Source: a virus. Taken from it: DNA of 64,000 bases. A model generated the notes under the pieces. It was not told the DNA's origin. It worked only from the letters and a program-made list of their open reading frames with translations, and ran no database searches. This document shows positions 31,966-48,826 of the stretch, in pieces; position 1 is the first letter of the stretch, and each line of letters opens with the position of its first letter. A program made the translations under genes and the position numbers. Where the stretch lies: the IMG/VR virus record IMGVR_UViG_3300007276_000043, positions 1 to 64,000 of that record; one strand, given 5' to 3'.

Positions 31966-32388
31966 TTATTTACCTACTACCTTTTTCCAATTGTGTGCGG
32001 ATCCCATTAAAGAACTGATGTCAACACCGGGATCACTTGGTGCTATATCGCTCAGAGGTCCTTGTGTCTGTGGTTGCCCTGGGGATGGGCCTGCTCTTGT
32101 CGGTGTTGTCCCCTCAAATACATTTACACCGTTATAAGCATCCGTTCCAATAGAATCAAGAAGCTTTCGTTTTTGTTCCAATAGCCGCTTTCTTTTAGCT
32201 TCTTGGGCTGCTGAGTTATCTATCTGTGGTTTTTGTTTGGGTTGTTTTGTTTCAACAATACGAGTACTAGCAGTGCCTTTCATAACCTCTGCTATCACTG
32301 TTGATAGAATGCCCTCTTCTAGCAATACTTCATTGATACATTGTTTTACTAAAGGTTTGAGAACCTTTTTCAATTCGTCTTTATTCAT
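31966..32388 (-). CDS. Hypothetical protein (140 aa), head module
   Basis: MNKDELKKVLKPLVKQCINEVLLEE leader; between protease and bS21. Confidence 0.65.
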   Translation of the reverse strand: MNKDELKKVLKPLVKQCINEVLLEEGILSTVIAEVMKGTASTRIVETKQPKQKPQIDNSAAQEAKRKRLLEQKRKLLDSIGTDAYNGVNVFEGTTPTRAGPSPGQPQTQGPLSDIAPSDPGVDISSLMGSAHNWKKVVGK

Positions 32389-33035: not shown

Positions 33036-33314
33036 TTAGTTAGCAGGTATATTCATTTTCTTTGCTTTTTTATAAACAAGATCAAGCCCATCCATATCTT
33101 TCTTTTTTGCCATATTATGTATCATTTCCATTTCACCATCTGGACCATATTGATATCTTGTTAAAAGAACTCCAACAATATCATCACGACCAATTGCTTT
33201 TAAATCGGCTTTCAATTGTTCCATTTCTTTTGAATTCCACTCATATGAACCTTCTCGTAATGAGTTTAATTCTTCTTTAATAATCTCTATCAATCTTTCT
33301 TTTGTAATCTTCAT
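33036..33314 (-). CDS. Small protein with MKITKERLIEIIKEEL leader
   Basis: ORF with SD AAGGA; leader shared with other small proteins in the window. Confidence 0.65.
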   Translation of the reverse strand: MKITKERLIEIIKEELNSLREGSYEWNSKEMEQLKADLKAIGRDDIVGVLLTRYQYGPDGEMEMIHNMAKKKDMDGLDLVYKKAKKMNIPAN

Positions 33315-33330
33315 TATTATAATTCCTTAA

Positions 33331-33356
33331 AAAATAAAAAACGGGCGCAACCCGTT
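33331..33356 (-). terminator. Rho-independent terminator
   Basis: mRNA AACGGG-UUGCG-CCCGUU followed by UUUUAUUUUU. Confidence 0.75.
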
Positions 33357-33360
33357 CGAG

Positions 33361-33420
33361 TTAGGATCCAGAACAGCAGCGACGAACTGGTTGAAGCATC
33401 CATTTAGTTGTCCAAGTCAT
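33361..33420 (-). CDS. Putative 19-aa microprotein MTWTTKWMLQPVRRCCSGS (not in ORF track)
   Basis: ATG overlaps the upstream TGA (ATGA), is preceded by AGGAGAGGA, and the stop is followed directly by a terminator. Confidence 0.55.
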   Translation of the reverse strand: MTWTTKWMLQPVRRCCSGS

Positions 33421-33794
33421 TTGTCCTCTCCTGTTTTGTTAATTTTTAAACCACCATCATTAATTAGCATAGATAATATGTATGAAGTTCCCGAAGCAAC
33501 CCAGCCACATATAAACATATTTCCAATGGAGTATTTGAAAGTAAATAGTTCTGTCCATCCGTTTATGAAAAACAAAAACATTCCTACCCAAAATCCCATA
33601 CACATGGCACAATTCGCCATATATCCAATAAGACCGTATTGGTCTCTCCGGGGGCGGATTTTTTCAAATATTTTAGAATAAACTAAAATCTGTGTTAGTC
33701 CGTATGCGGCTAAAATAAACCAAATCATTCCCATATCAAACTCTACCATATTAAGATCGTCTGCGATGTTTATATTGCTACTATCAATATTCAT
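33417..33794 (-). CDS. Small membrane protein with CxxCxGFW motif (DUF1360-like)
   Basis: FILAAYGLTQILVYSKIF..IR...CAMCMGFWVG, three hydrophobic segments. Confidence 0.6.
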   Translation of the reverse strand: MNIDSSNINIADDLNMVEFDMGMIWFILAAYGLTQILVYSKIFEKIRPRRDQYGLIGYMANCAMCMGFWVGMFLFFINGWTELFTFKYSIGNMFICGWVASGTSYILSMLINDGGLKINKTGEDK

Positions 33795-33797
33795 TTT

Positions 33798-34388
33798 CTA
33801 CTCATATGAATACCGACCATAAATATAAGACCCAAATACATCGCTTTGAGGTATTGACCCTTTTTCAGTTTCTTGTGGAACTTCGCCGAGTTCAGTTGAA
33901 TTTGCAGCATCAGGGTCAAGCAACGCATCATCCATCATATCGTCGTATGCTTCCATTGCTTTAAAGTATGGTCGCTCTCCGTCCATCCATTGGCTGATTT
34001 CATATAAAGAAGCTTTGACCGAATCAAGCTCTGTTGATTCTAAAATTTTAGCCTCAAGGGACCCGTAGACATTACCGCCTTGAATTGAATCAAAAGCAAC
34101 AACACCCTTTTTCTTGAGGTGATCAAATAGTCGGCTCTCTGCTCCATAAACCACTTCGGACATTAAATCTTTAGCAAAGGCAACAATCTTATTTGATTCA
34201 AGCATAACAACGATATCAATATCAGCATGATCAAAGATCATTAAGTCGCCGTTCAGAGCCCTTCGCATATTTAATTTAAATTCCAGCATTTGTCTATTGG
34301 GATCAACGATCTTAATATTAACCGTCTCGTTTGCTGGCTGTTCGATTGGTTCTGGGGTAGGATCGGTAATATTTACTTTAATAGCCAT
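33798..34388 (-). CDS. Hypothetical protein (196 aa), head module
   Basis: Tight operon context; STELGEVP C-terminal motif. Confidence 0.6.
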   Translation of the reverse strand: MAIKVNITDPTPEPIEQPANETVNIKIVDPNRQMLEFKLNMRRALNGDLMIFDHADIDIVVMLESNKIVAFAKDLMSEVVYGAESRLFDHLKKKGVVAFDSIQGGNVYGSLEAKILESTELDSVKASLYEISQWMDGERPYFKAMEAYDDMMDDALLDPDAANSTELGEVPQETEKGSIPQSDVFGSYIYGRYSYE

Positions 34389-35212
34389 TATTCGAGCACC
34401 TCAGAAACAAAATCTTGAATATAAAATACTTCTTTTACCAATTCTTCGGTAATTGGAGTTTTCTTATAATTTTCAAGCTTCTCAAGAATTCTTTGAGTAT
34501 TATTATAGAATTCTTTATTATTTTTAATTTTATCTGTCTCGGAACATTTTGAGACTTGTTCCTTGAGTCGGGCCACTTCTTCGTTCAAAAACGATTTAAG
34601 ACCAAGGCCGTTATCTGAGAAAGATGTGATATAGTTTGTTAAGAGATCCTTTTGTTCTTTACGAAGGGTATTATCATAAGTTTCATTAAATTTGTTAACG
34701 AATGTCTTATACTCCAAACTATCAATATGTTTCATTTCTTGCTTTTCTTCTGTCTTTGTAGAAGCAAGCATTCCAACGACTCTTTGTTCCAAAATCAAAC
34801 GAGTTTTAGCATTAGCACCCTCTGAATTGAAATACTGATACAAAGATCCGATGTTCTTATAATTTGATATAAAGTTTGAGAAAACAGCATTAGAATAAGA
34901 TTCGTTGATCTCTTTAATTAAAGCGGTCTGTTGGTTGAAGATTTCTTTCTTATCAAGATTATTGAAATCTTTTTTGACCTCAAACAAAAATCTTTGAGAA
35001 AGATTCGGAGACATTACTTCTGCTTCTAATACAGATTTGTAGATTTCCAATTCTTTTTTAAGCGGAGAACCAGCATTAAAATATTTTTTAATGGTCTCCA
35101 GCACTTTTTGTTTTTTCTCTTCTTGTCCTCGGACAATTGCTTTTGTTAATTCTGTGATTAATGATTCGTAAAGAAAAGCGGTATTTCTTTTCTTATTGTG
35201 TCTTACTCTCAT
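34388..35212 (-). CDS. Hypothetical helical protein downstream of portal (possible prohead core component)
   Basis: MRVRHNKKRNTAFLYESL; position between portal and protease. Confidence 0.6.
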   Translation of the reverse strand: MRVRHNKKRNTAFLYESLITELTKAIVRGQEEKKQKVLETIKKYFNAGSPLKKELEIYKSVLEAEVMSPNLSQRFLFEVKKDFNNLDKKEIFNQQTALIKEINESYSNAVFSNFISNYKNIGSLYQYFNSEGANAKTRLILEQRVVGMLASTKTEEKQEMKHIDSLEYKTFVNKFNETYDNTLRKEQKDLLTNYITSFSDNGLGLKSFLNEEVARLKEQVSKCSETDKIKNNKEFYNNTQRILEKLENYKKTPITEELVKEVFYIQDFVSEVLE

Positions 35213-37124
35213 TTTCTGTGTTCTCCGATTTGTTTAAGCCTTCTAAAAGCTTCTTTATTTCTGTTGATGTTTTAAATAGTTTTTCTTCTTCTATTTTGTC
35301 CAATGATTTATTTTCTGTTATACCTCTGGCTAATGAGTCCAGCCCACCATAGCCAGTCTTACCTTTATAAATACTTCTGGTTGTGTTTCCAAACTCGCCT
35401 GTGGCTTGATTTTTCATATGTTTAGAAAAGCCGCCTTTGCGATATTTTAACTGATGTTTCTTATATGGACCTCTGGTTTTATCGTCGTCTCGTTTACCGG
35501 GGGCAGCGAGAAGAGTACCATCGTCTTCAGCAGCAGCGGGTTCTTCGGCAGCACCTTCGTCCCCGCCAAGATCAAGTTCATCACCGCCGCCAAGATCAAG
35601 TTCATCACCGCCAGTATCATCACCGCCGAGGTCAAGGTCTCCACCGCCGCCAGTGGCTTCGGGTGCTTGTCCAGCGGCTTCAAGTCCAGCCATAAACTTT
35701 CTATCATAGAACATTTCTCTTTGCATTCTAATGAATTCGTCTTCGGAGATACCAAACATATGTTCAGCGATCCATCGCATGGAAAAGAACCCTTCAGTAG
35801 CAGCACCGGCGACATCAAATTTGGTTTTCCAATGTTCAAGTTCTTGGAGTTCAGCGATCTTTGAAGGATTATTCAAAGCAAGGTCAAATGCTAAAAGATC
35901 GTCTCCTCTGAAGCCTAAAGTAAAAAGATGAATAATTCCAATTTTTTCCAATTCTGAAATAACAACTCTTTGTAATCTTTGAATTGTTCTGGCGAAACGA
36001 ATATCCTTTTGTGCTAAAGTTGTTTTATCCTCTGAGGATCCTTCGCCCATAACAAGATATGATTGGGGAACTTTAAGAGCAGCAAATAATTTTTCTCTTA
36101 AATACTTAACATCTTCTACGGTTCCTGTAAATTGACCACCGGGGAGGTTTTGTATTTCTGTTCCAGAAGCACCACCGCGAATAGGAATAAAGTAATCTTC
36201 TTCAATTGATAAGGGATTATAGCGAAGATCAACTCGACCAGTTTTTGGATCAACAACTTGATGTCGTTTCATTTGAGTCATAACTTTCTGCATATACTGT
36301 TCAACATCGTTTGGTGCGATATTTCCAACATCAATTTTAAACACTCGTCTTTCTGGGCTTCTTACAATTCTATATGCCATCATAGCATCTTCAAGAAGAG
36401 TTAATTGTCTCCAGATACGACGGGCAGGCTCAAGAACCGAAGTTCCATAAGGAGAATGCTTGTCGTTACCAAGAATGCGGAAATGAGCCATTTGCCAGTT
36501 TTCAAGAGTCATACCGGCACTATTCCATTGATATTGGACATAATTTGGGTTTGTCTCATCTTCTCCCTCTAATCTTTCAATTTCTTGGGGAGGTAGACCG
36601 ATTACGCTTCTGATTCCCATTTTGTCATCAATGTCCAAATATAAAAACAAATCCCCATACTTACACATTGTACGAGACCAACCAAAGAGATTGTGGTCAA
36701 TGTTTAAAACATTATGATACAAAGAGTGTAAAATAGACTTTATTTCTTCATTAGGGCACTTAATTCTTAACATGGGTTGTAAAGAAGAATGAGTGGTCAT
36801 TTCATCAGCATAAATATCAATAGCAGAAGCAATGATAGGTTCATATTCCATTTGGTCAAAATCGACATACCTCTCAGAACGACCCCTGTTGGAAATCATA
36901 TTAAGAGTGGTCACATTCATTGGGTTGTATTCTGACTTCTTAAATTGTTGTCCGGAAGCAGATTTAAACTTAGAAGAATAAATATCCAAATGTCTTCTTC
37001 TTAATTGGCGACCCGATTGTGTTCGTCTCTGTGTTAGTGGACCAGAGAGCAATCTTGTTAGTTGCTTAAATAATCCTGATTCGTCATTATATGGGTTTCT
37101 TGTATTCTTTCTTCTTGGGGCCAT
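35193..37124 (-). CDS. Portal protein (T4 gp20-like)
   Basis: PYGTSVLE.ARRIWRQLTLLEDAM..YRIVRSPERRVFKIDVGN, EEDYFIP.RG..GTEIQNLPGG, ALKVP, DIRFARTIQRLQ. Confidence 0.95.
   Translation of the reverse strand: MAPRRKNTRNPYNDESGLFKQLTRLLSGPLTQRRTQSGRQLRRRHLDIYSSKFKSASGQQFKKSEYNPMNVTTLNMISNRGRSERYVDFDQMEYEPIIASAIDIYADEMTTHSSLQPMLRIKCPNEEIKSILHSLYHNVLNIDHNLFGWSRTMCKYGDLFLYLDIDDKMGIRSVIGLPPQEIERLEGEDETNPNYVQYQWNSAGMTLENWQMAHFRILGNDKHSPYGTSVLEPARRIWRQLTLLEDAMMAYRIVRSPERRVFKIDVGNIAPNDVEQYMQKVMTQMKRHQVVDPKTGRVDLRYNPLSIEEDYFIPIRGGASGTEIQNLPGGQFTGTVEDVKYLREKLFAALKVPQSYLVMGEGSSEDKTTLAQKDIRFARTIQRLQRVVISELEKIGIIHLFTLGFRGDDLLAFDLALNNPSKIAELQELEHWKTKFDVAGAATEGFFSMRWIAEHMFGISEDEFIRMQREMFYDRKFMAGLEAAGQAPEATGGGGDLDLGGDDTGGDELDLGGGDELDLGGDEGAAEEPAAAEDDGTLLAAPGKRDDDKTRGPYKKHQLKYRKGGFSKHMKNQATGEFGNTTRSIYKGKTGYGGLDSLARGITENKSLDKIEEEKLFKTSTEIKKLLEGLNKSENTENESKTQ
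35563..35610 (+). repeat. 24-bp tandem repeat (2 exact copies) in the portal acidic tail
   Basis: ccgccaagatcaagttcatcaccg x2, encoding (G)GDELDLGG; a degenerate third copy lies nearby. Confidence 0.8.
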
Positions 37125-37129
37125 TTTAT

Positions 37130-38713
37130 TTATCCTTTAAAAATCCAAACAAAATCACTCATTTGTTGTTTTGCTTCTAATTGTTTTTCTTTGATGTCTG
37201 ATCCGTATCCATTCATTCCTTTAATTGAAGTGTTCATTGTGGTTTTGTTTAGATACATAGAATTTAACATTGCTTTTTTATATTCTGCTTCTCTTTGATT
37301 TACTTGTAGTGCGGTATCTCTAACCCAACATGCGATAGCCAAAGACATAACCAAGTCGTCATGATAAGATCGCATGGCTTGGGGTTTTCCATTTTTCCAA
37401 ATAAAGGTTTTAAACTCATGAAAAGTTCTTGACGAATAAAGATTTATCATTTTATTTCTTATAAACTCCTCAAGTTTTGCTACAATCAAAGGACGAGTCT
37501 TTGTAGAAGTTGTGAAACCCGCTACAGCAGTGTCCATTGCTTCGCCTTGAACAGACTCCACAAATTCATGTGTTGATTTGATTGAGTAATAAAGGTTGGG
37601 ATACCCAAGAGTAATTAGTTTTTCCAAGATCGATATACCAATTCCGTTGTTTTCAACAACTAAAAGGCAATTTCCGTATTCCGTACCTGCACTGAACAAC
37701 ATTTGAGAGTACATATCAAGAGTTGGTTTGCCTTGGTATTCTGCTACAATTTCCATTGTTTCTAATTTTAAAACATGAAATACAGAATTATCAGCACCGT
37801 CGCCTCTAGCAACATCAGCAACAAGCATATAGGAAAACCCTTCTTCAAATTTCTCCCAAATCCAAAAGTTTCTATCATACCCTGTTCTATATACTGGTTC
37901 TCTAATTGTTTCGTTTATCCAAGCAATATCATCAGGGTGGATTACTGTGTCGCCTGATGTATTAAAGTTGCATTCTAACTCTTGTGCTATTTGTCTCCGA
38001 GACATATTTTTTGTCTCTTTGTTGAACCACTCATGGTTTCTTTCGGGGTGAACATCCCATGGAAGACAAACCGGGTGGAAATCGTTCTCTTTATTGTCGG
38101 CATCAATATAGGTTTTATGAAACCAGTTTCCAACACCGTTTGGAGTTGAAAGAGCAATGCAGCGACCACCAGTTGATAGAGTAGGATACAAACCAGTCCA
38201 GAGTTCTTTTAACCCATCAACGTGAGCAGCCTCATCAATTACCAAAAGCGAAAGAGCTTCAGAACGACCGGCGTCGCCAGAAGTAGAAGCGGCTTTGATT
38301 TGTGATCCATTTGATAATTCAAATGATGTTCTGTTATCAATTGAAATTGTAGCCACTTGCATCCAAGGAGGCAGATTCTTCATTATAGCTTTTACTTTCT
38401 TTACCAAGTTGGCAGCAGTCGCAAATTTGGTTGCGATGACCAGAACATTTTTATCACGATGAAACAACATAAGCCACACACAATATGCGGCTGTAATAGT
38501 TGAAATGCCCAACTGTCGGGCTTTTAGTATAACTGTAAAGCGGAAATCATTGTAGTCGTTTAATAAATCATCTTGATACGGATAAGTTTTAAACGGAACG
38601 AGTCCTTTCAGTGGGTGTGAGATCCTACAAAAATTATTTGTAAAGTAAACTGGATCTTTCCCGCATTTAAGGATTTCTTTTACAATCTCCTTTTTTGAGA
38701 GTTTAAAAGACAT
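37130..38713 (-). CDS. Terminase large subunit (gp17-like)
   Basis: Walker A KARQLGIST, Walker B LLVIDEAAH, STPNG, nuclease DVARGDGADNS, VVENN, HDDLVMS. Confidence 0.95.
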   Translation of the reverse strand: MSFKLSKKEIVKEILKCGKDPVYFTNNFCRISHPLKGLVPFKTYPYQDDLLNDYNDFRFTVILKARQLGISTITAAYCVWLMLFHRDKNVLVIATKFATAANLVKKVKAIMKNLPPWMQVATISIDNRTSFELSNGSQIKAASTSGDAGRSEALSLLVIDEAAHVDGLKELWTGLYPTLSTGGRCIALSTPNGVGNWFHKTYIDADNKENDFHPVCLPWDVHPERNHEWFNKETKNMSRRQIAQELECNFNTSGDTVIHPDDIAWINETIREPVYRTGYDRNFWIWEKFEEGFSYMLVADVARGDGADNSVFHVLKLETMEIVAEYQGKPTLDMYSQMLFSAGTEYGNCLLVVENNGIGISILEKLITLGYPNLYYSIKSTHEFVESVQGEAMDTAVAGFTTSTKTRPLIVAKLEEFIRNKMINLYSSRTFHEFKTFIWKNGKPQAMRSYHDDLVMSLAIACWVRDTALQVNQREAEYKKAMLNSMYLNKTTMNTSIKGMNGYGSDIKEKQLEAKQQMSDFVWIFKG

Positions 38714-39255
38714 TATTTCCTAGTGTCGTTACTTGGCCTCTTTTTAGAACTAAGAGAAAGAAAATCTCTGATTGATTTATCTACTGTGTCCTCGGAAGGA
38801 GACAAGATTGGTTCTGAATCAACACCGGAGATTTTATACCATTGGTATGCCTGTACCCAAGAATGAACACGGGAAACAGATTGCACTAACACTTTCATTT
38901 CGTCTTCTTTCATAAGAGTGATTTTAACTGATTCGCCAGTAATGGCTTTATATTCTTTTTGCAAGAACTTTTTAATTTCATTAATTCGTCTCGCGATTTC
39001 ATCTTCAAACCCACCAGCATAAACTTCTTTGAGTTTAACTTCTGATTGATAATTGATGCACATCGCATCACCAGAAAATTTAACTTTAAATCCATCAATA
39101 ACTCTTGAATCAAGAATAGGATCGCCTTCTTCGCGATTAAGTCCCATTGATCGTGCTTTTCCATCGGCAGCATATCGCTCGTCGTGTGAGCCGTCATATG
39201 AATTGGCTGCTGCTTGAGCAAGACCTTGTACGATTTTTAGTGTGTTTGAACTCAT
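38713..39255 (-). CDS. Hypothetical protein (180 aa)
   Basis: Coupled to terminase by a TAATG overlap. Confidence 0.6.
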   Translation of the reverse strand: MSSNTLKIVQGLAQAAANSYDGSHDERYAADGKARSMGLNREEGDPILDSRVIDGFKVKFSGDAMCINYQSEVKLKEVYAGGFEDEIARRINEIKKFLQKEYKAITGESVKITLMKEDEMKVLVQSVSRVHSWVQAYQWYKISGVDSEPILSPSEDTVDKSIRDFLSLSSKKRPSNDTRK

Positions 39256-39362
39256 TTGCTTATTTCCTCTTCTGTGTTTTGCTCTTCAGAGGCATCTTGT
39301 GTTGTAAGTTTTTCAAGTTCTTCTTTAATAATTTGCTTGAGTTGTTCTTTAGTGAGTTTCAT
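39252..39362 (-). CDS. 36-aa microprotein MKLTKEQLKQIIKEELEKLTTQDASEEQNTEEEISK (not in ORF track)
   Basis: ATGA overlaps at both ends and fills the gap exactly; carries the MK(I/L)T..L..II.EE leader. Confidence 0.7.
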   Translation of the reverse strand: MKLTKEQLKQIIKEELEKLTTQDASEEQNTEEEISK

Positions 39363-39736
39363 TTTTTGGGTCTCCAACCTTTTTTCCATCTATCTTCCCG
39401 ACCTTCAATCCACTGTATGTAACACTTTTCGCAGCAATCAAACTTCGTCATATAGACATCATCGTTTGATTTAAAAGAGTATGTATTACAAACCGGACAA
39501 GATCGTTCGGATTCTTTATTAAGTAGTTTTTTGGGAATAAAAACCCCATTTACTTCTTCTCGATCAAAATCTTCTTTGTCTTCATAGTATTTGTGTGTTT
39601 CTTTTAGTTGAGCCAAATACTCTTTTTCTTTCTCATCTGTCCAATTGCTCTTCGGGTGTTGTATTGTTTCTTCACCATATTTCTTCGCAATTGCTTTCTC
39701 AACTTTTACTGTATAATTCGGATCTTTTTTGGTCAT
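39359..39736 (-). CDS. Small zinc-finger protein (CPVC...CCEKC)
   Basis: Cys motif near C-terminus; operon-coupled. Confidence 0.6.
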   Translation of the reverse strand: MTKKDPNYTVKVEKAIAKKYGEETIQHPKSNWTDEKEKEYLAQLKETHKYYEDKEDFDREEVNGVFIPKKLLNKESERSCPVCNTYSFKSNDDVYMTKFDCCEKCYIQWIEGREDRWKKGWRPKK

Positions 39737-40164
39737 TGAATCCCCGGTTTAATCGCATACATAATACCGATTGCTGCTCCTGCACCAACTGTGAAGCCAC
39801 CAATAGCCCACCAATGGGCATTTGAAGGGCGAACATACTTTTCTAAACTCTGGATATGCTGGTCTCGAATATTAATAATCTCTTGATATTTTTGATTGTC
39901 TGCTTCTGATTTGGCATAGAAAATATCGTATTTGTACTGTTCTTCGGCTCTTACTTGACCAATCTCAAAATCAACTCTCAGTTTGCACTCAAGGTTTTGA
40001 AATTGATTATCAACAATAATCTTGGATACAGCAGCATCGTTAAAAAGCCGCCCATCAAATGGTGCGACTTCGCCTTGTTTAATGTTACTAAATTTTGGTT
40101 TCTCGTCTTCGCCGTTTGCGGCAGAGGACCAAGTGAGCAAAGCTCCCATAAGTAGATACTTCAT
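39733..40164 (-). CDS. Exported/membrane protein: N-terminal signal, coiled coil, C-terminal TM
   Basis: MKYLLMGALLTWSSAANG...; C-terminal WWAIGGFTVGAGAAIGIMYAI; SD GGAG. Confidence 0.6.
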   Translation of the reverse strand: MKYLLMGALLTWSSAANGEDEKPKFSNIKQGEVAPFDGRLFNDAAVSKIIVDNQFQNLECKLRVDFEIGQVRAEEQYKYDIFYAKSEADNQKYQEIINIRDQHIQSLEKYVRPSNAHWWAIGGFTVGAGAAIGIMYAIKPGIQ

Positions 40165-40193
40165 GTTCTCTCCAAGATTAAAAGGATGAATGT

Positions 40194-40222
40194 ATTATAA
40201 CATATTTTTAATAACTTGTCAA
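40194..40222 (-). promoter_or_regulatory. Consensus sigma70 promoter TTGACA-17-TATAAT with extended -10 TG
   Basis: Minus strand TTGACA agttattaaaaatatgt TATAAT; -35 at 40222-40217, -10 at 40199-40194. Confidence 0.85.
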
Positions 40223-40223
40223 G

Positions 40224-40625
40224 TTATTTTTCTGGTGTCTCTGGTGTGCCTGTCTTATCAAGCATCTTGCTAATTCCCATTGCAGCAGCGGCGGCTGGTA
40301 CAGCTAAAAGACCAAGGTCTTTGAGAACACTAATGACCATCATAATATTCTCTGGTGTGATGTGTTCCATAGAAGGTGATTCGTTGAGTGGTACATCCAT
40401 CACATCGGAGAAAAGCATTTCAAGCATTCCTTCAACATCAGCACGGCTAAGATTATTAACTTCTACAAAGTTTTGAAACTCTCCAAATATTTCTTTTGGT
40501 GATAGTCGCTTGGGCATATCAAGTGCATTATATATTTCATCTTCACCACCCATATCGTGATAATCGCCTTCTGTTTGTACTTCTTCTTGAATAAGTTTTT
40601 TAAGTAATTTTGCTGTGAGTTTCAT
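40224..40625 (-). CDS. Protein with MKLTAKLLKKLIQEEV leader and C-terminal hydrophobic segment; start refined
   Basis: ATGA overlap at 40625; leader motif. Confidence 0.65.
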   Translation of the reverse strand: MKLTAKLLKKLIQEEVQTEGDYHDMGGEDEIYNALDMPKRLSPKEIFGEFQNFVEVNNLSRADVEGMLEMLFSDVMDVPLNESPSMEHITPENIMMVISVLKDLGLLAVPAAAAAMGISKMLDKTGTPETPEK

Positions 40626-40822
40626 TTTTTGCATCCTTTTGGTAAATGAGATCTTAAAGATTTTTTATATACTTCAATATCGGGTTGTGACCATCTTTTT
40701 TTGGGACAATAAGTTCTGTGATCTTCTTGGTCTTGAAGAAACAATTCTAATGCTCTCATATCTCTTTTGAGATTATCATCTCCACCGGTTAACATAGAAG
40801 CGATTAGAAGAGCCGCTTTCAT
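40622..40822 (-). CDS. Small hypothetical protein (66 aa)
   Basis: Overlap-coupled on both sides; hydrophobic N-terminus. Confidence 0.5.
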   Translation of the reverse strand: MKAALLIASMLTGGDDNLKRDMRALELFLQDQEDHRTYCPKKRWSQPDIEVYKKSLRSHLPKGCKK

Positions 40823-41103
40823 TGCTCTCTCCTCGTCACCATCGACTCGATCCGTCCCAGAGACCCCTTCATATATTCGATGTCTTTTTCCATTCCGATT
40901 ATTTGCTTTGAGTTGTCGTCGGAATTTAGAATTTTTTTTTCTAGGGACTCAATAACTTGTTCGGCGTCACCTAAATCATTTTTAAGTTCGGCAACCTTTA
41001 AATTGGTTGACCAAACCCAGCCAGCAAGTGGAAGAACCAATACTGACATAAGTAAGGAAAATAATTTCCAAATATCATCTTTTGTTATATTAGCCATGTT
41101 CAT
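40819..41103 (-). CDS. Single-TM coiled-coil membrane protein
   Basis: LFSLLMSVLVLPLAGWVW followed by heptads. Confidence 0.55.
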   Translation of the reverse strand: MNMANITKDDIWKLFSLLMSVLVLPLAGWVWSTNLKVAELKNDLGDAEQVIESLEKKILNSDDNSKQIIGMEKDIEYMKGSLGRIESMVTRREQ

Positions 41104-41503
41104 TAATCCCTAATTCATCTTCTAAAATTTTATCAATCTCTGAAGGGTTATTCTTTGCTTGTTTCAGTTTTTTTCTAACTTCAAATTCTTTCTCTATAAT
41201 AAGAGAATCAAACTCTCCCTTATATTTCTCACGAACAGTCTTCATTGCATTATCATATTTCTGCTTTGCTTGTTCGCGAAGTTTCTTTTCGGTCTCGTAT
41301 GCTTTTACAATAGCATCTTTCTCTTGCTTATAATGTTTAAGAGTAAGCTTGGCTTGGATGAGTTCCGCTCTATTTTGTCTCTTACCAAGAAGATAAACAA
41401 TAGCAAGAGCAGCAATCATCACAAGCCAACGCCAATGTTGCCGACACCAAACAGAAGCAATGTCCCACCATTTTTTAATCAACAACATAGACATAAAGCT
41501 CAC
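41090..41503 (-). CDS. N-terminal TM plus coiled-coil protein (i-spanin-like topology)
   Basis: WLVMIAALAIVYLLGK then a charged coiled coil. Confidence 0.5.
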   Translation of the reverse strand: MSFMSMLLIKKWWDIASVWCRQHWRWLVMIAALAIVYLLGKRQNRAELIQAKLTLKHYKQEKDAIVKAYETEKKLREQAKQKYDNAMKTVREKYKGEFDSLIIEKEFEVRKKLKQAKNNPSEIDKILEDELGINEHG

Positions 41504-41709
41504 TCTCCGTGTTTATAAACCTTCACAGTGTCGATGACCGATTGACCACCAACATAAACAATCGCAATCATGCCCCAGGTTTCTGGGTCAAGAAGCGAAT
41601 AGGCCATAAGACCGGTTGCTGTTGCGAATACAAGAAGTTTTCTTGAGATTGCTTTTTCAAGCAATTGATCAATTACACTTCCGGTTTTTTCTTTTAGTGC
41701 TTGTACCAT
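41500..41709 (-). CDS. Holin-like two-TM small protein
   Basis: SRKLLVFATATGLM...WGMIAIVYVGGQSVID; late motif and SD AGGAG upstream. Confidence 0.5.
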   Translation of the reverse strand: MVQALKEKTGSVIDQLLEKAISRKLLVFATATGLMAYSLLDPETWGMIAIVYVGGQSVIDTVKVYKHGE

Positions 41710-41745
41710 ATTTATCTCCTAATATGACACAATAAATAGTAAGTT

Positions 41746-44700
41746 CTATTTTAAAACAACATTAGCATATCCATCAATCTTATCTATATCAATGGTCATG
41801 TCTACAACATCTTTTAGTGATTCAAGGTGAGATACGAGCAATACAATCTTAAATTGTGTCTTTACCATCTCTAACAAACGAACAAATCCTTCCATGTGCT
41901 CGGCATCCAATGCTGTTGCTGGTTCATCAAGCACAAAAAGGTTTCCAACTGGTAAGTTAGTAATTGAAATCATACCAAGCCGTATAGCCATAGAAGCCAA
42001 TGTTTTCTCAGCACCAGAAGCCATAGAAAGAGGTCTTGGGTCATATGCTGGGTGTTTGATAAATATATCTAACTTGGAGTCTGTATTATCAAAAAAGACC
42101 TCGAAGTCAACAATATTAGCCAGAACTTTTCCTATTTCTTCATTAATAATTGGAAGACGATCTTTAATAATGTTGTATGAGATTCCATTAGCGTGCATAC
42201 ATCGCATAAACATTTCATAAGCAACCCACTTGTTTTCATAGCCCTTATACTCTTCAAGTTCTTTCTCGATGTTCTTTATGATTTGGGCGGTTGATCCCTG
42301 TTCAATAAGACATTCTTGCAACTGCTCATTACATTTAGTATGTACTTGTCGCAGTTGGGATATCTTTGTTTCAAGTGCTTTCTTTTCTCTCGTAAGTGTT
42401 CCAAGGTTCTCAATGGCTTCTCTGTTTTCTTCATATTCCGCTTCCTGATTTCTTAAACTTTCTATTTGATTCTTTAAAAGATTCAACTTGTCTTTATTAG
42501 ACGATAGTTCCATAGATTTTATTTCATTTTGATTCTGTAATTGATCAATATCTTGAGAAAACTTATTGTGTCTCTCAATATTAGAAGTAATCTCTTCTGG
42601 ATTTATAAAGTTTATTTTTTCTTGTATGTCTGAGACAAACTCTTGTAATTCCTCAATCATTTTGGTTGTGGGCATTATTTTAGTTGAAGCATCGTGAGCA
42701 TCTTTTACAAACTGATTGCTTACACAATACTTGCAATTAGGATCATACTGGTGTTCGTCAAGAAGTTTAACTTTTGATTTTAGATTTTCTAATATTTTTG
42801 TTTGTTGATTTAATTTTAATGTTATTATTGACTTTCGTTCTTTATGAGTTTTACAAGTTTCATTTAGAGAAACAAGTTGTTCATAATTCAAATCGTCAAG
42901 AACCATTTTATATTGTTCTACAAACTCTTCATTATTTAATATTTCTTTTTGAAGGTCGATGTTTTCATGTAAAATTCTCTTAACACCTTCTTCTTTAGAA
43001 ACAATATCGGCCTTAACTTTATCAATATCAATTATCTCCGCTGGTATTGAAGATATAATATCTTCTACTTCTTTTAATTTGCCGGTAAAAGATTCAACTG
43101 ATTTTGTTGTCTTCTGACATTCTTTTTTCTTATTCTCAATTGCTTCAACTATTTCTTCTAAAAGTTCTTGGTTTTTGGTTATATCTTCAAGATAATTCTT
43201 TGCTTCAAACTTCTTAATTAAAGTTTTAATATCAGCGGAGTCCTTTTTGGCTAATTTAAACTTCTGATCGAAGATATCCAAGTCAAGGAATTTAGCAATA
43301 ATCTCTTTCCTCTTCGTCGAACCTTCTTTGATAAACGACAGGGAGTCAAGCTGTGAGGCCATAGAGGTTAGTAGAAAGTCGTCAATCGTACCAAACTTCC
43401 TTCTGATATTAGCATCGGTCTCGTTGCGAGTGGTTCCGTTTAAACTCTCTTCAACTCCACCAATTTCTTTTGTAAAATCAAGATCAACCTTTGCTTCAAT
43501 TGTTTCCTTGCCTTTTAGTTTTCTTGTATACTTGTTCAAATTGCGAGCAATCTTGTATGTCGCATTATCTGATTCTATTTCAAGAAGAATTTTGGCATCT
43601 TGTTTGTTCTGGTTGATTATGTGGACATTTTTTCTTTCATTTTTAGAAGTTGTATTATACATTCCGTATAAAACACTATCAATAATAGAAGATTTACCGG
43701 AGTAGTTCTTACCAAAAATACCCACGATACCATTAAGTCGATCAAAGTTGATAGTGTTCTTTTCGCCATAGTTAAAAAGATTGTCCCAAGTCGCACTCTT
43801 AAGTTTCCAAATAACATTTCTTGTTATCTCCTCGTTTTCTTCAACGGTTTGATTATATTTTCTGTTTAATTCCAATACCTTATCCATGATTCCATCATCG
43901 AGTTCCATATCTTTAAGGTATTTTCTAATATATTTCTCTTGTACTGTGATATCTCGGAGGTTTTCTTTCTTTAAAGCATCGGAAAGGTTTGTCTTTTCGT
44001 TACCTTTGTAGCTCGTCTTGACACTAAATGAGACACTTATTGGTCGCCACTTAACCTTGGCAAAATCCATCGCTCTTTTCATTTTAATTGGAGGTATAAG
44101 ATTAGAACCAATTAAACGCAAGCGACAACCAATAGGAACATCAACTTTGGGCAATTGTCCTGTCTTAGTTAACACAACGTTAACAAACGGACGAGGGTTG
44201 TTAAGCTTATGAAATTTAACCTTAAAATCTGTTTTGTCGTTAATGTGCCACATTAAGTAGCCTTTATCAACATCCTCTCCAAAGTTCTGCTGAACAGTGG
44301 AGCCGCAATATGCTATTGTGCCTGTCTTATTAAGGAACTGCTTCTTATGTATATCTCCGAGCATAGCATAATCAAAATTCTTGAATATATCCGAATCATG
44401 CTCTCCAAACTCCATGGTATAGCCTAAATCGGTTTGACAATTTGAGATTGCTCCATGGTATAGGGCGACATTAATCTTGCTATCATCGGTGGGCTGTGTC
44501 CAATTTTCTTCGTCAAACACTGAAAGGACATTAAATACTATCTTATCATCGAGTGAAAATTCACCGGCATCTTTGAGAAAATGAAGATTAGGGTGCTTTA
44601 GTGCTGCGACGATTGGACCAATAGCATCTTCGCGATTAGCATTTTTAAGGTTACCATCGTGGTTACCTGCTATAATAATAGTGGGTGCTACATTCGCAAG

Positions 44701-44913
44701 GTTACTTAAAAACTCTGTTGCAAGAGAAAAATACTCTGGTGATAGTTGTGTCTTTGTGTGAGCCAAGTCGCCACAATGAACAATATAATCTGGTTGAGAT
44801 TCTTTCAACTGCTTATAAAGATCAGCAAAGGCTTCACGATATTCAAAATGGTATTTTAAATTACGGATATGAGTATCGGCTATATGAGCCAATTTAATTG
44901 TCTTGTTATTCAT
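41746..44913 (-). CDS. Fused SbcD(Mre11/gp47)-SbcC(Rad50/gp46) nuclease-ATPase
   Basis: Phosphoesterase ADTH, GDLAH, GNHD, GDIH; Walker A GKNYSGKSS; zinc hook CKYC; signature ASGAEK; Walker B VLDEP; SH. Confidence 0.9.
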   Translation of the reverse strand: MNNKTIKLAHIADTHIRNLKYHFEYREAFADLYKQLKESQPDYIVHCGDLAHTKTQLSPEYFSLATEFLSNLANVAPTIIIAGNHDGNLKNANREDAIGPIVAALKHPNLHFLKDAGEFSLDDKIVFNVLSVFDEENWTQPTDDSKINVALYHGAISNCQTDLGYTMEFGEHDSDIFKNFDYAMLGDIHKKQFLNKTGTIAYCGSTVQQNFGEDVDKGYLMWHINDKTDFKVKFHKLNNPRPFVNVVLTKTGQLPKVDVPIGCRLRLIGSNLIPPIKMKRAMDFAKVKWRPISVSFSVKTSYKGNEKTNLSDALKKENLRDITVQEKYIRKYLKDMELDDGIMDKVLELNRKYNQTVEENEEITRNVIWKLKSATWDNLFNYGEKNTINFDRLNGIVGIFGKNYSGKSSIIDSVLYGMYNTTSKNERKNVHIINQNKQDAKILLEIESDNATYKIARNLNKYTRKLKGKETIEAKVDLDFTKEIGGVEESLNGTTRNETDANIRRKFGTIDDFLLTSMASQLDSLSFIKEGSTKRKEIIAKFLDLDIFDQKFKLAKKDSADIKTLIKKFEAKNYLEDITKNQELLEEIVEAIENKKKECQKTTKSVESFTGKLKEVEDIISSIPAEIIDIDKVKADIVSKEEGVKRILHENIDLQKEILNNEEFVEQYKMVLDDLNYEQLVSLNETCKTHKERKSIITLKLNQQTKILENLKSKVKLLDEHQYDPNCKYCVSNQFVKDAHDASTKIMPTTKMIEELQEFVSDIQEKINFINPEEITSNIERHNKFSQDIDQLQNQNEIKSMELSSNKDKLNLLKNQIESLRNQEAEYEENREAIENLGTLTREKKALETKISQLRQVHTKCNEQLQECLIEQGSTAQIIKNIEKELEEYKGYENKWVAYEMFMRCMHANGISYNIIKDRLPIINEEIGKVLANIVDFEVFFDNTDSKLDIFIKHPAYDPRPLSMASGAEKTLASMAIRLGMISITNLPVGNLFVLDEPATALDAEHMEGFVRLLEMVKTQFKIVLLVSHLESLKDVVDMTIDIDKIDGYANVVLK

Positions 44914-44921
44914 TGAAGTTC

Positions 44922-46373
44922 CTATTGTTCAGGTTTCAGTTTTTTTATCAAGTCGTTTGCTGTCTTTTTATATTCCTCTATGTCCGTCCAACCTTGTTCT
45001 GGGAACATAATATTATTTGGAGCATAGTTTACCAATGGGATTGAGAATCCCGTGTATCGATGTTTAGTAAACATAACCTTAGAGAACTCGCCTGTCAAGA
45101 TTAAATTAATAATTTTTCTTGTTATCTCTAGAGAAATTCTTTTTCCTTTTCCGTAACCACCACCAGTCCAACCAGTATTAACAAGCCAGCAGTTAATATT
45201 GTGTTCTTCTATTTTGTTCTTCAGTAAGTTAGCATATGTATCAACCTTTAAAGGCATAAATGGTTGTCCGAAACAGGCTGAGAAGGTTGGGACAGGCTCT
45301 TTAACACCTTTCTCAGTTCCAGCAACTTTAGCAGTATATCCAAGTTTAAATTGCTGAACTGCTTCTTCTGTGGATAATTTCATCACTGGCGGTAGAACTC
45401 CGAAAGCATCACAAGTCAACATAACAATGTTTTTAGGGTGCTTATTAACATAGCCCATTATATGGGAATTGGGCACCACATCCGTTGAATAAGAGGCTCT
45501 ACCGTTCTCTGTGATGGACCCATCATCAAAGTCGGGCTTACCGTCTTTCATTACAACATTTTCCAATATCGTTCCTACCGACTTACAAGCATTCCAGATC
45601 TCTGGTTCTCCTGTTTCTGAAAGGCGAATGGTTTTAGCGTAACAGCCGCCTTCGATATTTGTAAGACCATTATCTGTCCAAAGGTGTTCATCATCGCCAA
45701 TTAAGACTCTATTGGGGTCAGCAGATAGGGTTGTTTTACCTGTGCCTGATAATCCAAAGAAAATAGTTGGATTTTCATTGCCCTTATCAACGTTCACAGA
45801 ACAATGCATTGGTAGAAAGCCTTTACTCGGTGTTAAAAAATTGATAAGAGTAAAAGCCGCTTTCTTGATTTCACCAGCATAATAAGTTCCAGAAATAAGA
45901 ATTAACTTTTCTGATACTGAAATCATTACCCTTGGTTCGTCTAAAAGTGACGGCAAGTGTAAAATAGTATATATATCAGTGACTTCCGGCGAATCTATAA
46001 CTTGTTCTTTTGTGATAAACATATTCCTAACAAACTGTGAGTGTCTCGCATATTCCGTATATACACGGAATCCAATTGCATGCTCAGGGTCTCTTATTAG
46101 AAGAGCGTCTTGTAAGTAAACTTCTTTATCTTTGACTGTGTTTAAGAACTTTCTCTTCATTTTATTAAAAGCACCTTTGGTCATTTTTTGATTCTCGGAC
46201 CAATCTACTTTTGTTTTTGTTTGCTTCTCATTAACAATATACTTTGCTGTTGGGCAGCGACCAGTATATTCACCAGTATAAGTGACGAGTGCTCCGTCTT
46301 CCGTTAAAGAACAACCTTCTTTTTCTATGGCGATCTCTAACAGTTTCGGTGTTTCTAAATTTTTATAAATCAT
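44922..46373 (-). CDS. pckA: Phosphoenolpyruvate carboxykinase (ATP)
   Basis: TGR.P..K, GTYYAGEIKK, MHCS, FFGLSGTGKTTLS, LIGDDEHLW, NIEGGCYAK, TENGRASY, LTCDAFGVLPP, GYTAKVAGTE, FSACFG, WLVNTGWTGG. Confidence 0.95.
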   Translation of the reverse strand: MIYKNLETPKLLEIAIEKEGCSLTEDGALVTYTGEYTGRCPTAKYIVNEKQTKTKVDWSENQKMTKGAFNKMKRKFLNTVKDKEVYLQDALLIRDPEHAIGFRVYTEYARHSQFVRNMFITKEQVIDSPEVTDIYTILHLPSLLDEPRVMISVSEKLILISGTYYAGEIKKAAFTLINFLTPSKGFLPMHCSVNVDKGNENPTIFFGLSGTGKTTLSADPNRVLIGDDEHLWTDNGLTNIEGGCYAKTIRLSETGEPEIWNACKSVGTILENVVMKDGKPDFDDGSITENGRASYSTDVVPNSHIMGYVNKHPKNIVMLTCDAFGVLPPVMKLSTEEAVQQFKLGYTAKVAGTEKGVKEPVPTFSACFGQPFMPLKVDTYANLLKNKIEEHNINCWLVNTGWTGGGYGKGKRISLEITRKIINLILTGEFSKVMFTKHRYTGFSIPLVNYAPNNIMFPEQGWTDIEEYKKTANDLIKKLKPEQ

Positions 46374-47308
46374 AAATTCCTCAAAGCATTAATTAGAAAA
46401 AAATTGTCGTAATCTACCGACTTTGCTTGGTTTTTTCTCTCAATAAAAACGTCATGAGACATAGAACCAACGTCCTCACAACCAGAGGTATCTATTTCAA
46501 GCAACTCGATATCATATTGTAGCATATTTTTAACGATTTGTCCAGTCTTTTTTTTCGCGTCTTCGTCTAAAGCCAAGTAAACTGGTGTATCATTTATCGC
46601 AATTGCTTGAAATAGTTTGGTGTTTTCTCGGAGAGTTGAGCCGAGAATAGGAATAGCGTTTTCCCCAGCCACTATGGCGTCAAAAACTCCTTCTACGAGG
46701 ATCACCGGACTATCCCAGTCTACAGAAAGTTGATTGAATATTATGTCCTTCTCGGCTGTTGGATTGAGATACTTTCTCTGGTGACCAACATACGATCTCG
46801 CAATAAAATAATTAACATTTCCGTCGTTGTTAAAAGACGGTATAATTACTCTGCCGCCGAAACGACCATCGTCACAATAACCAATCTTCCATTTCAATAT
46901 TTGTTCTCTGGTTATTCCTCTCAATTGAAGATAGTTGAGAACTCTTTTGGAGGAGTAGGGCAGGTGCTTGTTACAAAGAGAGATAAATTTCTCTGGTAGT
47001 TCAATTACTTGCTCTTCTTCTACATCATTCATTTCTGCGAAGATATTCTCAAATTCGTTTAAATCAAGACGACCTTCAAGTTCAAGCCACTTCTGTCGTT
47101 GTTGGTATGTTCCAAATTTACGAACAAGACGATAAATGTTCTTGCCGCTAGCAGAACATACCCAACATTTATAGCAACCTTTCGCAAAATTAACGGACAT
47201 TTTCTTTTTGTGGTGATTACAAACTGGGCAAGAAAAAATAAACTCGTCTCTAGACTTTCTATAAGATCCAAGTATATTACAAATAATCTTCTTTTTTTGC
47301 TCAAACAT
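46370..47308 (-). CDS. DNA primase (DnaG/gp61-like, Zn finger plus TOPRIM)
   Basis: CPVC..H...CWVC, YL..RGI, GRVIIP, EGVFDA, LALDEDA, EDVGSM. Confidence 0.9.
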   Translation of the reverse strand: MFEQKKKIICNILGSYRKSRDEFIFSCPVCNHHKKKMSVNFAKGCYKCWVCSASGKNIYRLVRKFGTYQQRQKWLELEGRLDLNEFENIFAEMNDVEEEQVIELPEKFISLCNKHLPYSSKRVLNYLQLRGITREQILKWKIGYCDDGRFGGRVIIPSFNNDGNVNYFIARSYVGHQRKYLNPTAEKDIIFNQLSVDWDSPVILVEGVFDAIVAGENAIPILGSTLRENTKLFQAIAINDTPVYLALDEDAKKKTGQIVKNMLQYDIELLEIDTSGCEDVGSMSHDVFIERKNQAKSVDYDNFFLINALRNL

Positions 47309-47326
47309 AAGTCACCTCTCAAAAAC

Positions 47327-47354
47327 AACATAACATATTATATTATTTTGTCAA
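47327..47354 (-). promoter_or_regulatory. Sigma70-type promoter upstream of primase-pckA-sbcDC
   Basis: Minus strand TTGACA-16-TATGTT with extended -10 TG. Confidence 0.6.
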
Positions 47355-47965
47355 GAAGAAACGATTATTCTCATAAAGTCATCATACATTGCTGGTAGTG
47401 GGAGGGCTTTTTCTACCTCTTCTTTATTTCCATCAGCAATAGCATTTCTTAAGTTTGTGGCTGATATTTCATCGGCATTAACTGTAATTGGGGGTAAATC
47501 TGTCTGGGCATTGTTATAGTCTTTTGTTATCTTTGCGAACTTCTCTCCACGACCAGCATCTTTTGATGAGTGACCAAGAGCAAACACCTTGCCTTGAAAT
47601 AAAGCAGGGTCGGCGTCCTTTACAAAATCAATAGCATCGGCAAATGGATTTTCATACTCTTTGCCTTTGCTTGAGATTCTTGAAGACGATCTAATCAACT
47701 CAACCTTGGGATCTTTGGTAACTCCGTAAAGATCAAATATTTTAAGAGTTTTATCAACATCAAAAGACATCGTTCCGTCGTCACTTTGTCTCGGAGCAGA
47801 ACCAACAAACACAAATACCTTCTCGACATCGGGGTGTTCGGCATATTTTCTGATCATTTGAAGGTGACCTTTATGTGGAGGTTTATACCCACCGGGCAAA
47901 AGAATAATATATTTATCTTTTTCTTCGGTTAAGAATCTTCTCCAATTTTCAAACAGTCTTCTCAT
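47351..47965 (-). CDS. Cytidylyltransferase-like (HxGH nucleotidyltransferase) protein with MRRLFENWRRFLTEE leader
   Basis: LLPGGYKPPHKGH and ISATNLRNAI. Confidence 0.75.
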   Translation of the reverse strand: MRRLFENWRRFLTEEKDKYIILLPGGYKPPHKGHLQMIRKYAEHPDVEKVFVFVGSAPRQSDDGTMSFDVDKTLKIFDLYGVTKDPKVELIRSSSRISSKGKEYENPFADAIDFVKDADPALFQGKVFALGHSSKDAGRGEKFAKITKDYNNAQTDLPPITVNADEISATNLRNAIADGNKEEVEKALPLPAMYDDFMRIIVSS

Positions 47966-48303
47966 AATAAGGCTTTCCTTTCATTATAAATAGCCATTAT
48001 TCTATAAAGAGACTCCAAAGCATCAGGATCAAGATATCTTTGTGGTATTCCGATTACCTCTAAAGACATTGTTATTGAAGCCTTTTCGTTTACCTCTAAG
48101 AATGCAAATTTAAAATAATTTGCTCTTTCCTCAACTTGTTGTTCGTAATCTTCAGCCTCATTATCAAGGCTCATATCTTGAAAAGCAAGGTATTCAAACC
48201 ATTCGTATAATTCTTCCGCTGCTTTATTAAGAGCATATCGGTTTAGATTAACAACTTTGCTATTATCTACTGATTTGTTCCACTCTTCAAAGTGCTTTTT
48301 CAT
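47962..48303 (-). CDS. Hypothetical protein with MKKHFEEW leader
   Basis: Overlap-coupled ORF. Confidence 0.55.
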   Translation of the reverse strand: MKKHFEEWNKSVDNSKVVNLNRYALNKAAEELYEWFEYLAFQDMSLDNEAEDYEQQVEERANYFKFAFLEVNEKASITMSLEVIGIPQRYLDPDALESLYRIMAIYNERKALL

Positions 48304-48304
48304 T

Positions 48305-48826
48305 TTACTCTTTTACGAAATCAAGCGTTCCCTTGTTGGCATCACGAACTCTTTGTTGCATAGTTTTAGATGAAGCATCGTCTTCTTTCTCTGCTTGGTC
48401 GGCTGAGACTTTGCCCTGGAGTTTATCTACTTTTAATTTTAATGCTTGTAGTGCTTCCGGTGAATCAACTTGGCTAGCCATTTGATCAACTAAATAAGCA
48501 TCAGCCATTTGATCTTTCTCAAGATCTCCAAAACTAAGTTTTTCTGCTGGGTTGCTTGCTATGTCTTTTGCTAAATCTGCTGCACCTTTCAAAGAAGTGT
48601 CTTTTTGTGAAAGTATCTGAAGAGCACTGGAGACGACATCCATAGTTGCATCATCAGCATTCTCAAATCCAGCACCCATAGCATTAGGGCTGAAACCCAT
48701 ACCTAAGCCCAATAGGAGAGCGGCGATCTTCTGCTTCATTCCTTCTTCAAGCAATTCTTGTTCGGTTTTCTCAGGAGTTGAAAAATTTCTCCAACCTTCC
48801 ATGATAAGTTTCATATCTTTAGACAT
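48305..48826 (-). CDS. Protein with MKLIMEGWRNF leader and internal signal-peptide-like segment
   Basis: ...ELLEEGMKQKIAALLLGLGMGFSPNAMGA; late motif upstream. Confidence 0.6.
   Translation of the reverse strand: MSKDMKLIMEGWRNFSTPEKTEQELLEEGMKQKIAALLLGLGMGFSPNAMGAGFENADDATMDVVSSALQILSQKDTSLKGAADLAKDIASNPAEKLSFGDLEKDQMADAYLVDQMASQVDSPEALQALKLKVDKLQGKVSADQAEKEDDASSKTMQQRVRDANKGTLDFVKE

Follow-up and report, generated by a model that had tools for sequence, protein, structure and literature searches.

A portable 14-residue N-terminal leader in marine T4-like phages is a probable capsid-targeting propeptide

Several proteins of otherwise unrelated sequence begin with the same type of 14-residue leader in a 64,000-nucleotide stretch of phage DNA (the window), the first 64 kb of the 76,463-bp IMG/VR viral contig IMGVR_UViG_3300007276_000043 (estimated completeness, about 42%). 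The leader comes in two flavors, and the most probable explanation in our view is that it is a capsid-targeting propeptide in the style of phage T4; packaging into the head, cleavage, and injection of the proteins that carry it would follow by analogy with T4. An earlier note on the window, made from its sequence, had described two leader families on unrelated proteins and proposed that both end in sites of the kind cut by prohead proteases. We evaluated these claims in the full contig, in related loci, and in cultured phages.

The phage from which the window derives is an abundant, uncultured, marine, T4-like phage. Nearly all genes of the window are on the minus strand, and the head and tail genes include a T4 gp23-like major capsid protein, a gp20-like portal, a tail sheath, and a prohead protease of family S77. 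The closest cultured relatives by capsid protein identity are the Microcystis phage Mel-JY01 (about 48%), the Flavobacterium phage immuto (about 45%), and the Rhodothermus phage RM378 (about 42%). Near-identical DNA is present in public sequencing runs of 13 studies, the labels of which are mostly marine or seawater.

Leader architecture and cargo repertoire

All N-termini quoted in the earlier note were found on the minus strand. In a six-frame translation of the full contig, the flavor 1 core (L..[ILV]I.EE) and the flavor 2 core ([FMLI]E.W[RNK].[FSY]) each have three matches, and all six lie at N-termini on the coding strand, no more than 20 residues from the start of an open reading frame (ORF) delimited by stop codons. 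A full leader with Glu14 is found in just four window proteins, with starts at 33314, 39362, 40625, and 47965; residues 12 to 14 read I-K-E in the first two, I-Q-E in the third, and L-T-E in the last. The earlier lists of members were therefore too long by a few entries. Among the flavor 1 starts, 33314, 39362, and 40625 were retained, but 32388, which had been included loosely, is the start of a separately conserved protein of 140 amino acids (aa) that has orthologues in L214 and L215 (33 to 42% identity) and is possibly part of the core or scaffold. Among the flavor 2 starts, 47965 has the complete leader, including (L)-x-E at residue 14, whereas the N-terminus at 48303 is degenerate; the motif assigned to 48826 is present, but it begins at the second ATG (48814) of the ORF that opens at 48826 and is partial.

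To define the leader across the lineage, we compiled a sequence logo from 46 distinct leaders, which were selected with a hidden Markov model, without the leader pattern scan, from loci fetched through the protease. Flavor 1 reads M1 K2 (L/I)3 T4 x x x L8 x x (I/M/L)11 I12 (K/Q/R)13 E14 E15 (L/I/V)16, with I12 present in all 46 leaders, E14 in 44, L8 in 41, and E15 in 39. Flavor 2, for which we had 27 examples, reads M K L (I/L) (L/F/M) E N W8 (R/N) x (F/Y)11 (L/V/I)12 (N/T)13 E14. Both flavors share one register, consisting of M1-K2, hydrophobic residues at positions 8, 11, and 12, and Glu14. Thus, the two families of the earlier note are both real, but they are two flavors of a single 14-residue architecture rather than separate families. 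All leader matches begin at a Met that lies no more than 20 residues into the ORF, and all have Glu at position 14. In the sampled loci, which are enriched because they were partly selected for carrying a leader, the 14-residue register occurs at 11% of gene starts and at 0.2% of internal positions; the 10-residue register of T4 length is at background frequency in the sampled loci of this lineage. At the codon level, amino acids are fixed while synonymous positions vary freely: L8 is encoded by five different codons, I12 by ATC or ATT, and E15 about evenly by GAA and GAG. Because synonymous codons vary in this way, the codon usage indicates that selection on the leader acts on the peptide and not on the DNA.

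The leader is portable, as the earlier note had proposed. A search anchored on the protease yielded 80 related loci, and a degenerate DNA pattern for flavor 1 matched at least 120 viral contigs, often with two or three matches in tandem. We surveyed cargos in about 2.1 Mb of related loci, clustering proteins by BLASTP on the sequence beyond residue 18. The 297 distinct flavor 1 leader proteins (median length, 112 aa) fell into 243 cargo clusters, and cargos are swapped at the exact boundary of the leader. Pfam searches with the 146 larger leader proteins gave few matches, namely, GNAT (2), pentapeptide repeat, AAA_33/polynucleotide-kinase-like, DUF285, FliG_C, and nucleotidyltransferase; no replication or virion-structural family was among them. 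The few cargos recognizable as enzymes are of the NMNAT/PPAT-like, GNAT, and P-loop kinase types. The earlier note had held that the idea of a head-packaging tag would fail if the leader were equally common on replication proteins, and this is not what the Pfam comparison indicates. Cargos have a median isoelectric point (pI) of 4.9, compared with 6.3 for other small ORFs, and 64% of them are below pI 5.5. Segments resembling transmembrane (TM) helices occur in 1% of cargos versus 15% of other small ORFs. The cargos are thus predicted to be mostly small, acidic, and soluble.

Two further features of the cargos were noticed by inspection. A recurrent domain with the motif KYDVWPSAYASGA, which has no Pfam match, follows flavor 1 leaders in L085 (3784-4470), L084 (3634-4209), and L028 (2335-3528). 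In L187 (6563-7246, minus strand), the cargo repeats a leader-like stretch (…ELVNIVKEEV…) about 35 residues past the N-terminal leader, which hints at multi-module proteins joined at protease-type sites.

We also asked how far the leader extends beyond recognized viruses. The leader DNA pattern matched 16 stretches in a collection of bacterial and archaeal genomes, nearly all of them on contigs of metagenome-assembled genomes (MAGs), some large. Seven flavor 1 leaders are found on each of NHDW01000006.1 (305,838 bp; L224, L232, and L235; Methylococcaceae MAG) and PBIO01000025.1 (101,404 bp; L226 and L231; Halobacteriovorax MAG). Since both of these multi-leader MAGs also encode an S77 protease, these two contigs are probably mis-binned phage. 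One match in an isolate, at the N-terminus of a HIT-family protein, was set aside as a chance match.

Protease, cassette slot, and gene context

If the leader is a cleavable propeptide, the phage should encode a protease of the appropriate type, and the leader should end in a site that this protease recognizes. The window encodes a gp21-type protease, as the earlier note had it. In addition to its Peptidase_S77 match, alignment with the T4 gp21 structure (5JBL) revealed that the His (LGELDHP) and Ser (GISSRGMGS) motifs are retained, with HP and SRG(M/L)GS kept in the alignment. The maturation site of T4 gp23, FLTE↓A (arrow, point of cleavage), aligns with LLRE↓S at residues 56 to 60 of the window capsid protein; its counterpart in relatives is LLRE, VLRE, or IVSE. 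Because of this alignment, the lineage is predicted to retain a capsid maturation site of the form hydrophobic-hydrophobic-x-Glu. The leader ends (IIKE in flavor 1; FLTE or FLNE in flavor 2) share this form, which bears out the suggestion that leaders end in a prohead-protease-type site. Moreover, of 30 contigs that bear leaders, 21 encode S77. Every contig with a completeness of 59% or higher is among the 21, and the other nine range from 3 to 58% complete.

The gene directly upstream of the protease occupies a slot in which cargos are exchanged. The slot lies between the portal and protease genes, which is the place of genes 67 and 68 in T4. The window and five relatives with proteases 95 to 97% identical are nearly identical through a terminator-like hairpin and leader codons 1 to 16; past codon 16, all similarity is lost until the start of the protease gene. 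Among these six phages, four unrelated cargos follow the same leader, and additional cargos occupy the protease-adjacent slot in more distant relatives. Public sequence libraries show similar breakpoints. An RNA-library contig matches 33267-33698, stopping exactly after the 16 leader codons, and continues with 582 unlike bases. For the leader of the 36-aa ORF, many DNA- and RNA-library contigs match just the stretch from 39312/39319 to 39361/39364, at the borders of the leader codons, and the leader-coding stretch acts as a repeat in assemblies. The 92-aa protein in the slot of the window had no tblastn match among cultured phages even at an E value of 10, and its single-sequence AlphaFold2 (AF2) model (predicted local distance difference test [pLDDT], 61) was too poor for a fold search. 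The hairpin, a GC-rich stem at about 33342-33354 followed by a T run, lies between a gene for a 125-aa membrane protein and the 92-aa leader gene and is kept in the five relatives; from its sequence it looks like a terminator placed directly before the cassette and the protease.

The flavor 2 protein that starts at 47965 is an enzyme by prediction. It contains the motifs PHKGH and ISATNLR, of the (H/T)xGH and ISxTxxR types, respectively, and matches Pfam CTP_transf_like with 22.9 bits (cut-off, 21). Its AF2 model (pLDDT, 88.5) has NadM and PPAT as best Foldseek matches (probability, 1.00; TM score, 0.57). The sequence and the model both identify it as a predicted NMNAT/PPAT-type nucleotidyltransferase with a Rossmann-like fold. 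In the model, the leader is a detached, low-confidence helix spanning residues 2 to 12, Glu14 is in a linker, and strand beta1 starts at residue 18. All aligned homologues have the leader except two entries that are shorter at the N-terminus, and in homologues at about 35% identity it reads MK(S/T)F(K/R)QFF(T/L)E, a 10-residue sequence similar to the T4 tag. Distant homologues were found in two viral loci, both short. A related domain in the Flavobacterium phage immuto is part of a 908-aa protein and so gives no information on the leader.

To place the leader genes in an expression context, we examined the sequences upstream of them. Leader genes show no upstream enrichment of the T4 late promoter, TATAAATA. 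Instead, we observed a strand-specific motif, (A)CTATTTA(C/T), with 14 copies on the coding strand; its 7-mer core, CTATTTA, occurs 19 times on that strand and once on the other. Sites include 10399, 15610, 19198, 22182, 24073, 26791, 41732, 47986, and 52707, as well as one at 71580 in the contig. Of the 14 copies, 10 are followed by a start codon after 21 to 51 nucleotides (nt). The downstream gene belongs to the virion block in eight cases (among them sheath, probable scaffold, and fiber), is the enzyme gene in one, and encodes a 69-aa protein, at 41709, in one. The copy before the probable scaffold gene, CTATTTAC, is 33 nt from it. From this distribution, CTATTTA(C/T) is a candidate late promoter of the lineage, unlike the TATAAATA of T4. 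The features discussed here are collected in Table 1.

TABLE 1 Leader genes, head genes, and upstream motifs of the window (arrow, predicted point of cleavage)
Feature	Position	Strand	Remarks
Major capsid protein (gp23-like)	19274..21091	-	phrog_138; predicted maturation site L56-L57-R58-E59↓S60 at 20915-20926
344-aa protein, probable scaffold by position	21115..22149	-	Upstream of capsid gene; position conserved in relatives
Conserved 140-aa protein	31966..32388	-	Just downstream of protease; leader-like N-terminus ending VLLEE
Prohead protease, Peptidase_S77 (T4 gp21 type)	32401..33024	-	Pfam E 3.6e-32, 111.9 bits vs cut-off 27; phrog_207
92-aa protein, flavor 1 leader	33036..33314	-	Leader codons 1-16 = 33267-33314; hypervariable cassette slot directly upstream of protease
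Portal (gp20-like)	35193..37124	-	phrog_213, E 1.3e-74; heads portal-to-protease block with cassette slot
527-aa ORF, large terminase	37130-38713		Matches annotated large terminase of Flavobacterium phage immuto (nucleotide and tblastn)
36-aa ORF, flavor 1 leader plus 21-residue acidic tail	39252..39362	-	ATG overlaps stop of upstream gene; conserved in L003
133-aa acidic protein, flavor 1 leader	40224..40625	-	Second ATG of ORF opening at 40634; homologous cargo in L005, L006
CTATTTAT motif	41732..41739	-	Heads gene run 41709 to 40625 (leader) to 39362 (leader) to terminase to portal
204-aa NMNAT/PPAT-like nucleotidyltransferase, full flavor 2 leader (MRRLFENWRRFLTE↓E)	47351..47965	-	
113-aa protein, degenerate flavor 2-like N-terminus	47962..48303	-	W8 kept; no x-E at residue 14
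169-aa protein, partial flavor 2 leader	48305..48814	-	W8 and F11 kept; S-T-P at 12-14; LLEE at 22-25
CTATTTAT motif	47986..47993	-	21 nt upstream of NMNAT-like gene; putative late-type promoter

Some neighboring genes deserve mention. The 344-aa probable scaffold had no family match. In the 169-aa protein, the partial leader and LLEE are followed by a hydrophobic, Gly-rich stretch, AALLLGLGMGF, which is unusual in that leader cargos are almost never TM-like. A 71-aa ORF (31749-31964, minus strand), two genes downstream of the protease and between the 140-aa protein and the fiber genes, resembles ribosomal protein bS21 by eye. A full-length 483-aa ORF (44922-46373, minus strand), flanked by the primase gene and an SbcCD-like gene (1055 aa), looks like an ATP-dependent phosphoenolpyruvate carboxykinase.

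How the leader might work

The observations presented above led us to consider how the leader could act in the assembling virion. We propose that the 14-residue leader would form an N-terminal helix that, through its hydrophobic residues 8, 11, and 12, docks the protein on the scaffolding core of the prohead during assembly. Once the shell has closed, the gp21-type S77 protease would cut behind Glu14, at I-I-K-E↓E in flavor 1 and F-L-(N/T)-E↓E in flavor 2, a cut site of the same kind as the capsid protein maturation site of the same protease. The freed cargo would remain in the head and would probably be delivered with the DNA. We infer docking, cleavage, retention in the head, and injection by analogy with T4. 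Because the tag is short and self-contained, new cargo genes could plug in through recombination at the leader codons, which would give a fast-changing cargo set.

Several findings weigh against this account. The leader profile has no match in T4, RM378, or Mel-JY01 and a weak match in the Flavobacterium phage immuto, and no cultured phage in this comparison has the exact leaders. Flavor 1 is modestly amphipathic, with a hydrophobic moment that is not clearly above that of shuffled sequences. In two of the three flavor 2 genes of the window, 48303 and 48814, (L/I)-x-E is missing from the residue 14 register. Three further points, which concern gene location, cargo charge, and lineage, are considered here together with the competing explanation that they favor: that the leader is unconnected with the capsid and is a docking helix for some other common partner (for instance, a chaperone, a timed-degradation adaptor, or another protein of the phage or host) or an oligomerization handle, its likeness to a protease site being coincidental. 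We regard this explanation as unlikely, though it is the most serious competitor. In complete relatives, roughly half of the leader genes are far from the head module, many of them among auxiliary genes. The cargos are acidic, unlike the basic internal proteins of T4. Lineage confounds the co-occurrence of leaders and S77: one broad clade takes in all five of the leader-bearing genomes that we compared directly. In addition, the relative G002 encodes a 106-aa ORF (L084 2045-2365) that resembles a ClpS adaptor by eye. A partner other than the prohead leaves unexplained, however, the near-invariant Glu14-Glu15 with two hydrophobic residues in front and a constant spacing from Met1, the match to the maturation site of the capsid protein, the dedicated slot beside the protease, and the presence of a motif of the virion-gene type upstream of the enzyme gene. 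The ClpS-like ORF itself sits in a variable region where the window has its three flavor 2 genes.

Alternatively, leader proteins could enter the prohead and be cut there but serve as disposable accessories of the core or scaffold, like gp67 and gp68 of T4, with fragments that exit at maturation and no delivery of effectors. The slot between portal and protease coincides with the position of T4 genes 67 and 68, T4 gp67 is likewise small and acidic and contains LIKEE, one member of the set consists of a leader and a 21-residue acidic tail alone, and the acidity of the cargos in general would fit such a role. Yet structural accessories should be conserved, and here near-identical phages hold unrelated cargos; the presence of enzymes and a pentapeptide-repeat protein among the 243 cargo clusters also argues against this role for most members. 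We therefore consider it improbable as a general explanation.

Two other possibilities are far less plausible. A leader that is recognized by a modifying enzyme, in the manner of ribosomally synthesized and post-translationally modified peptides with a radical-SAM partner, is very improbable, since Radical_SAM (PF04055) is absent from G000, from G001 (100% complete; six leaders), and from G002 (92% complete; five leaders), and no other candidate partner enzyme adjoins the leader genes. Least credible is the idea that the conserved stretch works as DNA or RNA, either as a mobile regulatory or recombination cassette comparable to the T4-type promoter-stem-loop or as a translation-initiation element, with an incidental peptide: the leader codons are indeed recombination breakpoints and their DNA behaves as an assembly repeat, but a DNA-level cassette is contradicted because third codon positions are free where the amino acids are fixed, and leader genes share no upstream k-mer (a k-mer search returned just the conserved locus beside the protease).

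If the leader is a capsid-targeting propeptide that works as in T4, several hundred candidate virion-delivered proteins of this abundant, uncultured marine clade, most of them without a known family, become identifiable from sequence alone, and the "internal protein" strategy would be ancient, widespread, and far more expandable than the T-even phages suggest. A broader proposal, about which we are more doubtful than confident, is that any gene placed behind the 14-residue tag would be loaded and injected, so that every strain would hold a distinct stock of ready-made, mostly acidic proteins (DNA mimics, acetyltransferases, kinases, and an NAD-salvage-type enzyme) acting before phage gene expression. 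On that proposal, the two flavors might address different loading sites or copy numbers. If the tag simply works as in T4, it would offer an easy handle for finding first-strike anti-defense proteins, and the NMNAT-like enzyme is predicted to be delivered together with the DNA. As a second, orthogonal tag, it may also allow foreign proteins to be packaged into phage heads. The phrase "capsid targeting sequence" was absent from the top-ranked literature matches when it was combined with marine, cyanophage, or metagenomic terms.

Comparison with known systems

The nearest precedent is the capsid-targeting sequence (CTS) of T4, which is present on IPII and IPIII, has related propeptides on IPI and Alt, and is removed by gp21 (Mullaney and Black 1996, reviewed in PMC9026906, PMC3012670, and PMC5694885). 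More generally, T4 head proteins have propeptides of 10 to 20 residues of the capsid-targeting kind (PMC5694885), and the internal proteins of T-even phages are highly diverse, with only the targeting sequence in common (PMC3012670). In the T4 record, IPII and IPIII both start with MKTYQEFIAE; within this tag, targeting is reported to be governed by residues 4 and 7 and processing by residues 8 and 10 (PMC9026906). The spacing of these four residues equals that of leader residues 8, 11, 12, and 14. Like the CTS, the leader is a short tag that starts at Met1 on otherwise unrelated proteins, with hydrophobic residues three positions apart followed by hydrophobic-x-Glu, a gp21-family protease encoded in the same genome, and cargo that is polymorphic between close relatives. 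Unlike the CTS, it spans 14 residues rather than 10, has no detectable sequence homology to the T4 tag, and exists in two flavors; its cargo repertoire is far larger and mostly acidic, a dedicated swap slot adjoins the protease, and the system is known here from sequence alone. The median cargo pI of 4.9 also sets these proteins apart from IPI, IPII, and IPIII, which are small, basic, and associated with DNA.

The core proteins gp67 and gp68 of T4 provide a second comparison. Their genes likewise lie between those for portal and protease, the products are small, and gp21 cuts both at (L/I)-x-E. They are conserved components of the core, however, whereas the slot described here holds unrelated cargos in near-identical phages.

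In the giant phages phiKZ, 201phi2-1, and SPN3US, a protease related to gp21 cuts many of the head proteins after Glu (PMC5694885 and PMC9026906). The leader shares with these head and ejection proteins a predicted processing site after Glu and a gp21-related protease; conserved N-termini there are found on diverged paralogues. Giant-phage propeptides differ in their length, which mostly exceeds 100 residues, in their (A/S/G)-x-E motif, and in being followed by proteins that are paralogous rather than unrelated. Finally, the Dar anti-restriction proteins of phage P1 are packaged in the head and are an example of defense-countering cargo that is delivered from the capsid. Dar proteins are loaded through hierarchies of protein-protein interactions, whereas the proteins described here carry a short N-terminal tag that would be cleaved.

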